Source of the DNA: Escherichia coli
GTDB lineage: Bacteria > Pseudomonadota > Gammaproteobacteria > Enterobacterales > Enterobacteriaceae
DNA: 64,000 nucleotides
Direction: 5' to 3' (one strand)
Assembly: GCF_003018255.1 (NCBI RefSeq)
Contig: NZ_CP027440.1
Within the stretch, counting starts at the first letter, position 1. Each line of letters begins with the position of its first letter. The position numbers were made by a program, and so were the translations under genes. Below the pieces are notes generated by a model. That model was given only the letters and a program-made list of their open reading frames with translations, made no database searches and had not been told where the DNA came from. Shown in pieces: positions 48,639-56,683 of this stretch.

Positions 48639-52703
<4,065 letters not shown>

Positions 52704-52717
52704 AACTCCCATCTGAT

Positions 52718-52749
52718 GCCCGGTAAGCATGTTGTTACCGGGCATTTTT
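52718..52749 (+). terminator. Rho-independent terminator after glpC
   Basis: Hairpin GCCCGGTAA-N8-TTACCGGGC followed by ATTTTT. Confidence 0.75.
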
Positions 52750-52896
52750 GCGTCCACGATTCCGCGCTCAATGTATACGTTGCAACGCAGTGAAAATTCC
52801 TCTGAAAACGTCTCGCAAAGGCTGAAACTGGCAGATGTCAAAGGCCTGGGATAACCGTAATGTCGCGTTATCATAAATATCAGGTGACGGACAACC

Positions 52897-53856
52897 ATGA
52901 CCGAATCAACAACCTCCTCCCCGCATGATGCGGTATTTAAAACCTTTATGTTCTCGCCCGATACGGCGCGAGATTTTCTCGAAATACATCTGCCAGAGCC
53001 GCTGCGCAAGCTTTGCAACCTGCAAACCTTACGCCTGGAACCCACCAGCTTTATTGAAAAAAGTTTACGCGCTTACTACTAGGATGTTTTGTGGTCGGTG
53101 GAAACCAGCGACGGTGACGGCTATATCTACTGCGTGATTGAACATCAAAGTTCTGCAGAAAAGAATATGGCTTTTCGACTAATGCGCTATGCCACTGCCG
53201 CCATGCAACGTCACCTGGATAAAGGCTATGACAGAGTTCCGCTGGTGGTGCCATTGCTGTTTTATCATGGCGAAACCTCGCCCTACCCGTACTCACTCAA
53301 CTGGCTGGATGAGTTTGACGATCCGCAACTTGCCCGGCAGTTGTACACCGAAGCTTTTCCGTTGGTGGATATCACCATCGTACCTGACGATGAGATCATG
53401 CAACATCGGCGTATAGCTCTGCTGGAACTGATTCAAAAGCATATTCGCGACCGCGATTTAATCGGTATGGTCGACAGGATCACCACGCTTTTGGTTAGAG
53501 GCTTCACTAATGACAGCCAGCTACAAACGCTGTTTAATTATCTGCTGCAATGCGGCGATACCTCCCGTTTCACCCGCTTTATTCAGGAGATTGCCGAACG
53601 TTCACCACTACAAAAGGAGAGATTAATGACTATTGCTGAACGGCTACGGCAGGAAGGACATCAAATTGGCTGGCAGGAAGGTAAATTAGAAGGCTGGCAG
53701 GAGGGGAAATTGGAGGGTTTGCAGAAAGGCAAAGTAGAAGGTATGCATGAACAAGCCATTAAAATTGCCTTGCGCATGCTGGAACAGGGCTTTGAACGTG
53801 AGATTGTGCTGGCGACAACCCAACTCACTGATGCTGATATTCCGAACGGTCATTAA
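52897..53856 (+). pseudogene. yfaD: yfaD/rpnE, Rpn-family (transposase_31 / PD-(D/E)XK) nuclease gene interrupted by one in-frame TAG at 53080-53082
   Basis: 61-codon ORF ([17 protein letters not shown]...LRAYY*) and the following 255-codon ORF (from TTG 53089, [21 protein letters not shown]...) are in the same frame, separated only by a TAG. Confidence 0.6.
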
Positions 53857-53868
53857 AAGGAGAGATTA

Positions 53869-54042
53869 ATGACTATTGCTGAACGGCTACGGCAGGAAGG
53901 ACATCAAATTGGCTGGCAGGAAGGCATGCATGAACAAGCCATTAAAATTGCTTTGCGCATGCTGGAGCAGGGCATTGATCGTGATCAGGTGCTCGCGGCC
54001 ACTCAGCTAAGCGAAGCCGATCTGGCAGCGAATAACCACTAA
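53869..54042 (+). CDS. ypaA: YpaA, small Rpn C-terminal-domain paralogue (tandem partial copy of the yfaD 3' end)
   Basis: 57-codon [38 protein letters not shown]...; about 70 nt including the AAGGAGAGATTAATG leader are identical to 53613-53680 inside yfaD. Below the 60-aa cutoff of the ORF track. Confidence 0.65.
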   Translation: MTIAERLRQEGHQIGWQEGMHEQAIKIALRMLEQGIDRDQVLAATQLSEADLAANNH

Positions 54043-54051
54043 TTAACACAG

Positions 54052-54080
54052 GCCCACAGCCGATCCCCATGGGCCTTTGA
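54052..54080. terminator. Candidate bidirectional terminator between ypaA and rhmA
   Basis: Hairpin AGGCCCA-N13-TGGGCCT followed by TTTGATATCAA, between convergent genes. Confidence 0.45.
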
Positions 54081-54082
54081 TA

Positions 54083-54886
54083 TCAATAACTACCTTTTAC
54101 GCGTGGCCCATTTTTGCCTGATTTAAACATCGCCAGTCGTTGATCCAGGGCATCGCTGTAGAGCATCGTGTCAACGCCAACAGCGACAAAGTTCGCTCCC
54201 CACGCCAGGCATTGCTGCGCCATATCAGGAGCCACAGCCAGAAAACCAGCCGCTTTACCCGCAGCACGGATCCGCCGAATGCTGGTTTCAATAATTCGCT
54301 GCACTTCCGGGTGCCCGGCGTTATCCGGGTAGCCCAACGACGCAGAAAGATCCGCAGGTCCAATAAACACGCCATCAATCCCTTCAACATCGAGGATTTC
54401 GTCCAGGTTATCCAGTGCCGTTTTACTTTCCACCTGCACCAACAGACAAAGCGAATCGTTGACTTGCGCCATGTAATTCTCAATGCGTCCCCAGCGCGCA
54501 GCCCGTGCCACACTGGCCCCAACACCACGCTCACCGTAGGGAGGATAGCGCGTGGCAGACACCACCTGACGTGCCTGATCGGCAGTATCGACCATTGGGA
54601 TCAGTAGAGTTTGCGCGCCAATATCCAGGACTTGTTTAATCAGCGGCTTACTGCCTTCCACCGGACGGATCACGGGGTGGCTGGCATAGGGCGCTACCGC
54701 CTGTAGCTGGTGATAAAGATCCTGAATGGTGTTTGGCGCATGCTCCCCGTCAATCAGCAACCAGTCATAACCGGAAGTGGCGGCAATTTCTGCCATATAG
54801 GCAGTCGTTGAGCTTAACCACAGACCAATTTGCACTTCGCCCTTGCGTAAACGTTCTTTAAAGGGATTGGTTAATAATGCGTTCAT
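54083..54886 (-). CDS. rhmA: 2-keto-3-deoxy-L-rhamnonate aldolase
   Basis: 267-aa HpcH/HpaI-family aldolase ORF recognised as RhmA (YfaU). Confidence 0.88.
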
Positions 54887-54902
54887 CGTGTTCCTTAACT
54901 AT

Positions 54903-56039
54903 TTAATGATGTGCCACGTCGGTCTGCGCAACAGTGCGATTTACACGCAGAGTGAAAATAATCAGCGAACCGATGACCGCCACCGCTGCCAGCGTCAGTA
55001 ATCCCGCCGCATCGCTGGAAAATAACGTTTCTGCTTTCACGCGCAGGATCGGGGCAATAAACCCGCCCACTGCACCAAACAGGTTTATAAAACCAATCCC
55101 CGCAGCCAGCGCCGTACCGGAAAGAAGCTGTGTCGGCATCGTCCAGAACACTGGCTGTACGGCAATAAACCCGATGGCTGCAACACACAGCGCAACGATC
55201 GCCAGTAATGTCAGCGCCGCGACATTACGCCGCTCGCCGGTTTTATCGGAATAGCGCGGAATAAGCCAGGTCCCAAACAAGGCCGCGACCCACGGAATGG
55301 CGGTGACCACCGACGCCGTAAAGCCCACTTTTGTCCCCAACAATGCAGCAACCTGCGTCGGCAGGAAGAAAATTAATCCGTAAACCGCCACCTGAATGGT
55401 CAGGTAGATAATCGCCAGTTGCCAGACTCGGCCATTACGCAGCGCATCGCTCAATCGAGAAGTCACTTTCTGTTGTTCTTCACTTGCCAGTTGGTTGATA
55501 AGCAACGTTTTTTCTTCTTTACTCAGAAAACGTGCCTGCTCCGGCGTGTCATCAAGCCAAAAGAATGTGAATACCCCAGCGCCGACTGCCAGCAATCCTT
55601 CAATCACAAACATCCAGAACCAGCCGGGATGCCCCATAAATCCATGCATCTCCAGCAGCGCGCCGGAAAGCGGTGATCCCAGTGTTAACGCCAACGGTGC
55701 GCCCATATAGAACAGCCCCATAATGCTGGCGCGATTACGCTGCGGAAACCATTGCGAGGTGAGATAAATCATACCAGGGAAGAACCCGGCCTCCGCAGCA
55801 CCAAGCAGAGTACGAACGATCAGAAATTTCGCTTCAGTATCGGCCCATGCCATGGCTGCCGAAAGAAATCCCCACAGCAGTGTTGTCGTACCAATCCAGG
55901 TTCTTGCCCCCAGTTTGCGCATCAAAAGATTCGCCGGAACACCCAGAAACGCATATACCACAAAGAAAATGCCTGCTCCCAGACCAGCCCTTCGATAATA
56001 CTTTGCTGTACAGCTGCAGGTTGCCAGGCAAGCAGGCAT
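54903..56039 (-). pseudogene. rhmT: rhmT (yfaV) L-rhamnonate MFS transporter, 5'-truncated remnant
   Basis: 378-codon ORF is MFS-like from GAGIFFVVYAFLGVP onward, but the first ~20 codons are non-hydrophobic and overlap the rhmR remnant; the expected first TM helix is absent. Confidence 0.65.
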
Positions 56040-56464
56040 TTACCTATTCCGGAGCGATAAAGCGAAAGGCTTTTTCCTTCATGGGAACGCACGCTGATAG
56101 TGGCTGATGACTCCACTTTCAAAATGTAATAAGCGCTGCCGTTATCAATAATCCCCAGGTGACATAACAGCCCAGTGGTATCCATCAGTTGCGTCAAACG
56201 CGGTCGAGCCAGTTCCCGGAGATCCATCTTGCTTAACGCATGACCGGAAAGCTCCACCAGCCTGGTCCACAAACAAAAATTTTCCTGGTGATCAAGGCTA
56301 AGAAAACGCTGACGCCTGAGTTCATTAAGCAGCAAATAGGCCGTGCTTTTAGGGATCCCCAATGTGTCAATGATCGTCGCAGCACTACAGGGGCCAATGC
56401 GGGCAATCAAATTGAGAATATCAATAGCCCGTGTCAGGGCGGGAACTTTGCTTGATTCCAACAT
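55922..56464 (-). pseudogene. rhmR: rhmR (yfaX) IclR-family regulator, 3'-truncated remnant
   Basis: 180-codon ORF has an intact IclR-type HTH (TRAIDILNLIARIGPCSAATIIDTLGIPKSTAYLLLNEL) but ends after a partial effector domain with an out-of-frame tail (FSLWYMRFWVFRRIF) that is rhmT sequence read in another frame. Confidence 0.65.
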
Positions 56465-56683
56465 ACTGGACTCCAGTCTTAGATACTGGAATCAGTCTCG
56501 TTGCTCAGGGGGAGTAAAATTGTGAAGCTCATCAAATCCCGCTCCTCGTCCAGCGGACTGGAGAAATTACGCACAAATTTGTGAATTAGCGCACGGATTT
56601 TTTCTTATTGAGTACAACAGGTTGGACAAATTTTGCCGGAGGGGGAATGTGCCGGTGCAGTAAACCGGCACAGAGTGGCGGAA

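Follow-up and report, generated by a model that had tools for sequence, protein, structure and literature searches.

The locus described here is very probably rpnE-ypaA, which belongs to the published Rpn "gene-within-a-gene" family of toxin-antitoxin systems; its short gene is duplicated, and it contains 12-nt repeats prone to slippage. It was found in a window of 64,000 nucleotides of Escherichia coli DNA (the whole stretch analyzed), between glpC, which ends at 52703, and the convergent yfaU (54083–54886, minus strand). The order glpC-rpnE-ypaA-yfaU is the same in the closest complete genomes and in K-12 MG1655, and the genes of the window are rpnE (formerly yfaD) and ypaA, flanked by glpC and yfaU as in K-12. 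Except for one base, rpnE of the window is the annotated rpnE of APEC O2-211. The features of the locus are as follows, with coordinates given as positions in the window:

52897–53856, plus strand: long frame of rpnE (yfaD), encoding RpnE_L, 319 codons; an open reading frame (ORF) that is a pseudogene here, with an amber at codon 62.
53080–53082, plus strand: private amber codon TAG (C to A at 53081), Ser62 in relatives, from comparison with the nearest genomes.
53612–53681, plus strand: copy 1 of a 70-nt direct repeat, with the Shine-Dalgarno (SD) sequence AAGGAG at 53614–53619, an ATG at 53626 and the first 18 codons of rpnE_S.
53626–53856, plus strand: rpnE_S, in-frame internal ORF of 76 codons and putative antitoxin form of RpnE; from translation, with initiation in K-12 published.
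53647–53742, plus strand: tract of eight four-residue (12-nt) units, which at the DNA level appears as about three 24-nt repeats.
53680–53739, plus strand: stretch of 60 nt, or five units, that rpnE has and ypaA lacks; the borders are ambiguous by a few bases owing to the repeats.
53855–53924, plus strand: copy 2 of the 70-nt repeat, with the SD at 53857–53862 and an ATG at 53869; it begins within the rpnE stop codon TAA (53854–53856).
53869–54042, plus strand: ypaA (rpnE_Ss), an ORF of 57 codons that encodes the RpnS domain as a free-standing copy and has diverged in its tail (...AANNH).
54050–54076, no strand assigned: G+C-rich hairpin, scored on the minus strand, that separates the convergent genes ypaA and yfaU and probably serves both as a terminator.

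A repeat search of the window showed that 53612–53681 and 53855–53924 form a direct repeat of 70 nt with 100% identity and a spacing of 243. The first-pass annotation of this DNA had described 53613–53680 as recurring almost exactly at 53856–53923; the repeat is in fact exact and extends one base further at each end. The shared segment contains AAGGAG, a 6-nt spacer and ATG in both copies, and within rpnE the same bases are read as in-frame internal codons (12 residues), so that this part of the earlier description was borne out by the sequence and the ORF translations. The segment differs from that of K-12 by one base in rpnE and one base in ypaA. A second block, identified by repeat search and pairwise alignment, pairs 53737–53838 with 53920–54021 over 102 nt at 81% identity, and between the two blocks the alignment places 60 nt of rpnE that are missing in ypaA. 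Since copy 2 starts within the stop codon of rpnE, the duplicated unit extends from the SD to the stop, and its two copies stand head to tail. The repeat and its reading are confirmed, but this arrangement has already been published as that of rpnE-ypaA in E. coli.

The distribution of the locus was examined in 5426 complete E. coli genomes, and the region was matched in 5420 of them. A 91-nt probe covering the rpnE tail and its junction with ypaA detected the two-gene junction in 3133 genomes (58%), while about 42% lacked it and have a single gene. For closer comparison, 18 loci were fetched across the range of match lengths and, together with the window (19 loci), translated from every MTIAER start. 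The hallmark of RpnS, an SD and start codon lying in frame within the 3' part of the rpn gene, is conserved in 19/19 of these loci. The first-pass annotation had named absence of ypaA from related strains and an invariant repeat number as findings that would speak against its reading; ypaA occurs in 58% of complete genomes, and the repeat number varies among strains. The same data exclude chance similarity or an assembly artefact as the source of the repeat. An exact 70-nt match in 64 kb would arise by chance with a negligible probability, about 4^-70 per position pair, it is accompanied by the 102-nt match at 81%, and the same arrangement occurs in 3133 independently assembled genomes; no evidence in favor of chance or artefact was found.

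The family assignment of the long form was evaluated with an amber-repaired translation of RpnE. This translation matched Pfam PF04754 Transposase_31 (E 7.5e-88, 293.9 bits, cut-off 21), the NCBIfam RpnE equivalog NF007418 (707.6 bits, cut-off 583) and TIGR01784 (172.7 bits, cut-off 52.1), placing it above the curated thresholds of the Rpn (YhgA-like) nuclease-family domain. The PD-(D/E)XK signature residues D11, D63, E82 and Q84 (RpnA numbering) are all present in the conceptual translation; mutation of these residues inactivates RpnA, and D63 is essential (Kingston et al. 2017, PMC5350276). The product actually encoded by rpnE of the window ends at codon 62 and so cannot hold D63, E82 or Q84.

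For the small proteins, YpaA matched positions 244–308 (the last 65) of the NCBIfam RpnE model with an E value of 7e-29. It also aligned over its whole length (residues 1–55 versus 1–47, E 4e-5) with the RpnA_S crystal chain (PDB 7TH0), and the first 11 residues of RpnA_S are those of the duplicated small-protein start. The earlier view that ypaA encodes the Rpn C-terminal domain as a free-standing copy therefore holds. An AlphaFold2 model of RpnE_S, built on a shallow alignment of 14 sequences, reached a modest mean pLDDT of 67.7, with values of 83–87 in the C-terminal helices, and its best Foldseek match in the PDB was again 7TH0 (prob 0.99, TM 0.73 on target, ~28% identity). In the repeat segment (residues 19–29) the pLDDT fell below 50, and the model gives no confident support for the repeats lengthening helix 1. 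Relatedness to RpnA_S, a small three-helix protein, is indicated by sequence for YpaA and by a modest-confidence model for RpnE_S. In the Pfam scan, PF14261 (DUF4351) gave no match to YpaA or RpnE_S at E <= 1; this is without bearing on the identity of rpnE_Ss, and the DUF4351 label for free-standing RpnSs applies "in some species" (PMC10400941). Sub-threshold Pfam matches of the small proteins to helical or HTH families such as Yae1_N, RepB_primase_C and HTH_7 were taken as composition or helix noise. Their PDB sequence matches to PPR proteins and to designed proteins built of helical repeats were likewise set aside, as a similarity between low-complexity helices. PADLOC (2023) contains no Rpn model; its sole match, a weak "putative invertase" in the C-terminal region (E 1.5e-4), is uninformative.

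These findings agree with a published body of work on the Rpn proteins. RpnA–E were named and nuclease-dependent toxicity was described for RpnA–D, while K-12 RpnE was inactive in all assays, causing neither toxicity nor SOS induction nor recombination (Kingston et al. 2017, PMC5350276). The constructs used in that work also expressed RpnS, which had gone unrecognized at the time (Zhong et al. 2023, PMC10400941). Retapamulin ribosome profiling revealed peaks at in-frame internal starts in all five rpn genes, and the internal product of RpnE was reported to be 98% identical to YpaA (Meydan et al. 2019, bioRxiv 10.1101/520783). The small RpnS products were subsequently described as antitoxins that bind and block the RpnL nucleases (Zhong et al. 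2023, PNAS, PMC10400941), an activity shown for RpnA, RpnB, RpnC and RpnP2. In the same work the structure of RpnA_S was solved, ypaA was named rpnE_Ss, and SPA-tagged RpnE_S and YpaA/RpnE_Ss were detected on immunoblots in MG1655. All RpnS and RpnSs were found to differ among strains through 4-amino-acid repeats in their first helix, the L form of RpnC was blocked only by an S form of equal repeat number, rpnSs genes were noted to be capable of disappearing through deletion or through fusion to the N-terminal region of rpn, and phage defence was shown for the plasmid-encoded RpnP2 (PMC10400941). The earlier suggestion that the C-terminal domain is also made by itself from within yfaD is borne out by the K-12 data, in which initiation at rpnE and ypaA was observed by Ribo-RET/Onc112 profiling and SPA tagging (10.1101/520783, PMC10400941). 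The gene within a gene had been correctly inferred from raw sequence alone. Published experiments already cover the internal start, the duplication of the small gene and the variation in repeats, which have little discovery value here.

Under the rpnE-ypaA reading, RpnE_L is a PD-(D/E)XK nuclease-family protein, and the internal SD and ATG (53614–53628) would direct the separate synthesis of its last 76 residues as RpnE_S. This small helical protein would bind and block RpnE_L, by analogy with RpnA, RpnB, RpnC and RpnP2. Tandem head-to-tail duplication of the SD-to-stop unit produced ypaA with its own SD and ATG, probably co-transcribed with rpnE/rpnE_S. The four-residue (12-nt) units of the first helix would expand and contract through slippage or unequal recombination, and recombination between the two copies could also delete the intervening tail, giving single-gene strains in which rpnE carries a ypaA-type tail. 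We infer from these analogies that RpnE_S and YpaA are antitoxins of RpnE_L; a toxin-antitoxin role for the RpnE paralogue is weakened by the inactivity of K-12 RpnE in the published assays. A scan of 52650–54150 found no hairpin in the gap between rpnE and ypaA, and the only terminator-like one was that at 54050–54076, 3' of ypaA. A consensus scan of the same interval found no sigma-70-like promoters, with 1.9 expected by chance, and neither favors nor disfavors an internal promoter; an internal transcript at rpnE rests on published dRNA-seq.

Three consecutive 24-bp repeats in yfaD, collapsed in ypaA, had also been noted in the first-pass annotation, and this description was only partly upheld. 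At the DNA level the 24-nt array is present in this allele: Tandem Repeats Finder reported 3.1 copies at 53668–53741 (76% matches, score 85), and the self-identity of the tract was 0.69 at lag 24, against ~0.2–0.38 at other lags (0.38 at lag 12). At the protein level and between strains, however, the unit is 12 nt or four amino acids, and the tract at 53647–53742 comprises eight such units. The 60 nt are missing from ypaA, but what is gone are five four-residue units (20 residues), with the first WQEG kept, rather than a clean collapse of three 24-nt repeats.

Across the 19 loci, RpnE_S (with the ...IPNxH tail) was 56, 64, 68, 72, 76 or 88 aa long, corresponding to 0 to 8 extra 4-aa units. Free-standing YpaA (with the ...AANNH tail) was 53, 57, 61, 65, 73 or 81 aa long, corresponding to −1 to 6 extra units, and YpaA-type products of all 19 loci together had lengths of 53, 57, 61, 65, 73, 77 or 81 aa. 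All length differences are multiples of 4 aa (12 nt). Variation begins after residue 10–19, in agreement with the description of RpnS proteins, in which four-residue repeats start 8–20 residues past the initiating Met (Zhong et al. 2023, PMC10400941). In the two-gene loci, the extra units of RpnE_S and YpaA were (5,0), (0,1), (5,1), (5,2), (4,0), (3,1), (8,4), (0,−1), (8,6) and (2,2). The two repeat numbers are therefore unequal in 9 of these 10 distinct allele pairs, a small and phylogenetically non-independent sample.

Six of the sampled loci (L007–L010, L014 and L018, including those of O104:H4 and O157:H7) carry a single gene. All six have the ypaA-type tail (...AANNH), and none has the rpnE-type tail (...IPNCH). 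In L007, an rpnE-type repeat array (...LQKGKVEG) is joined to a ypaA-type tail, and this allele is the fusion product that recombination between the two copies would be expected to yield.

The two tails in the window differ with a pS of 0.46 and a pN of 0.15, while diversity within each tail type among strains amounts to a pS of 0.07–0.09. Tail divergence lies far above within-type diversity, and the duplication is therefore old. In all 13 sampled two-gene loci, the first 48 nt (SD and 11 codons) are 94–100% identical between the copies, and the tails are 75–79% identical. Recent duplication as the source of the identical 70 nt was ruled out by the tail pS of 0.46 and by the recurrence of this pattern in 13/13 two-gene loci; the perfect identity is best read as start-region constraint or gene conversion, not recency. 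Reduced synonymous variation has been reported at the internal start site of yfaD (Meydan et al., 10.1101/520783).

The contrast between a conserved 5' part and diverged tails in 13/13 loci could also be expected if ypaA served mainly as a silent or semi-silent donor cassette, whose tail and repeats are swapped into rpnE by recombination between the near-identical 5' segments, for switchable specificity, with neutralization of RpnE_L secondary or absent. The tails of the window, at a pS of 0.46 beside an identical upstream 70 nt, would fit such exchange, as would the six natural fusion alleles and the mostly unequal repeat numbers of the two copies. A constrained SD, start codon and N-terminal helix, the last sharing its 11-residue start with RpnA_S, explain the 5' conservation equally well, however, and the reduced synonymous variation at the yfaD start (10.1101/520783) speaks for the same constraint. 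Moreover, YpaA is translated and hence not silent (PMC10400941), and among the 19 loci only deletions (the fusions, already described by Zhong et al.) were seen, with no reciprocal switching. We regard a primarily donor function as quite unlikely.

Alternatively, ypaA could be a dead gene fragment, a functionless remnant left by partial duplication, and genome annotation treats it in this way. The K-12 record marks it as a pseudogene, PGAP labels it "incomplete, missing N-terminus" in most genomes, and the two-gene junction is missing from ~42% of complete genomes. Against decay, the SD, the ATG and the open frame are intact in 13 of 13 sampled free-standing copies, and their length changes are all multiples of 12 nt. 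Free-standing ypaA tails contain 5 synonymous versus 2 non-synonymous variable codons (pN/pS 0.13, a small sample), and this apparent constraint, small as the sample is, argues against the "pseudogene" label. The YpaA protein was seen after SPA tagging in MG1655 and profiling shows initiation (PMC10400941, 10.1101/520783), and the record of strain H46 already names the ypaA product as a domain-containing protein. A dead fragment is accordingly very unlikely.

Routine annotation mislabels both genes and lags behind the 2019 and 2023 papers. In RefSeq (PGAP), rpnE is labeled "ISNCY family transposase" and ypaA, in most genomes, "hypothetical protein, incomplete, missing N-terminus". The K-12 record gives ypaA as "pseudogene" and RpnE as "inactive recombination-promoting nuclease-like protein". 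A single sampled record, the recent one of H46, names ypaA "Rpn/YhgA-type helix-turn-helix domain-containing protein".

The long form of rpnE is interrupted in the window, a feature missed in the first-pass annotation. The TAG at 53080–53082 lies one codon before the catalytic Asp63 of the PD-(D/E)XK site, and over 52850–54100 (1251 nt) nothing but the C to A change at 53081 sets the window apart from the 30 nearest genomes. The 71 nt around the amber had an exact match in none of the 5403 complete E. coli genomes matching there. The next possible start after the amber is a TTG at 53089, and a product restarted there would lack D11 and D63; the long form therefore appears to be knocked out, while both small ORFs are intact. 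The amber is either a private toxin knockout or a sequencing error. In BUCT2930 (locus L004, 239–1197), rpnE is annotated as frameshifted with ypaA intact, which makes this strain another, independent example in which the long form is damaged and the small ORFs are retained.

The repeat numbers also bear on the partner of YpaA. Under the matching rule described for RpnC, the mostly unequal numbers of RpnE_S and YpaA mean that YpaA may usually not neutralize the resident RpnE_L, as judged by analogy and from a small, non-independent sample. YpaA, perhaps not the antitoxin of the resident RpnE_L, and the orphaned RpnE_S might then have a role of their own; this reading draws on the repeat mismatch in 9/10 pairs, the apparent purifying selection on ypaA and the survival of both small ORFs beside the interrupted long form here, though we consider it unlikely. 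Such a role could consist in neutralizing Rpn nucleases of other repeat lengths arriving on plasmids or phages, or in a donor cassette that switches the tail and repeat number of rpnE. The additions made here, namely the 58% frequency of the two-gene arrangement, the usual repeat mismatch, the purifying selection on ypaA and a strain with a long-form knockout, could guide testing of whether YpaA is the cognate antitoxin.

Among known systems, the closest is RpnE_L/RpnE_S/RpnE_Ss of K-12, which shares with the window the locus, the genes, the SD and ATG start, the downstream copy and the glpC/yfaU flanks. The alleles differ: RpnE_S and YpaA have 0 and 1 extra units in K-12 and 5 and 0 in the window, and rpnE of the window carries the amber at codon 62, unlike that of K-12. 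RpnC/RpnC_Ss of some E. coli likewise combines an RpnS copy just downstream of its parent with 4-aa repeat variation, but it concerns another paralogue, and the published phylogeny traces it to a separate, independent duplication event (PMC10400941). RpnA_S (7TH0) has the same 11-residue N-terminus, matches YpaA over its whole length and is the best fold match of RpnE_S; at 49 aa it has zero extra repeat units, unlike RpnE_S of the window. An analogy drawn in PMC10400941 concerns the specificity subunits of EcoR124I/EcoR124II, in which the number of four-residue helix units (TAEL) alters specificity by setting the spacer length of the recognition site. These subunits would serve as an analogy only, since they belong to an unrelated family and their readout is DNA spacing, not protein pairing.

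Downstream of the locus, the rhamnonate-utilization cluster (54900–56470) is degraded relative to K-12. A gap of ~48 nt lies inside yfaV near 55200, and a deletion of ~1.7 kb at 55971–55982 has removed rhmD entirely, together with the 5' end of yfaV and the 3' part of yfaX, so that truncated ORFs remain, which overlap. At least 80% of 54880–56300 is found in one place in only 143 complete genomes.
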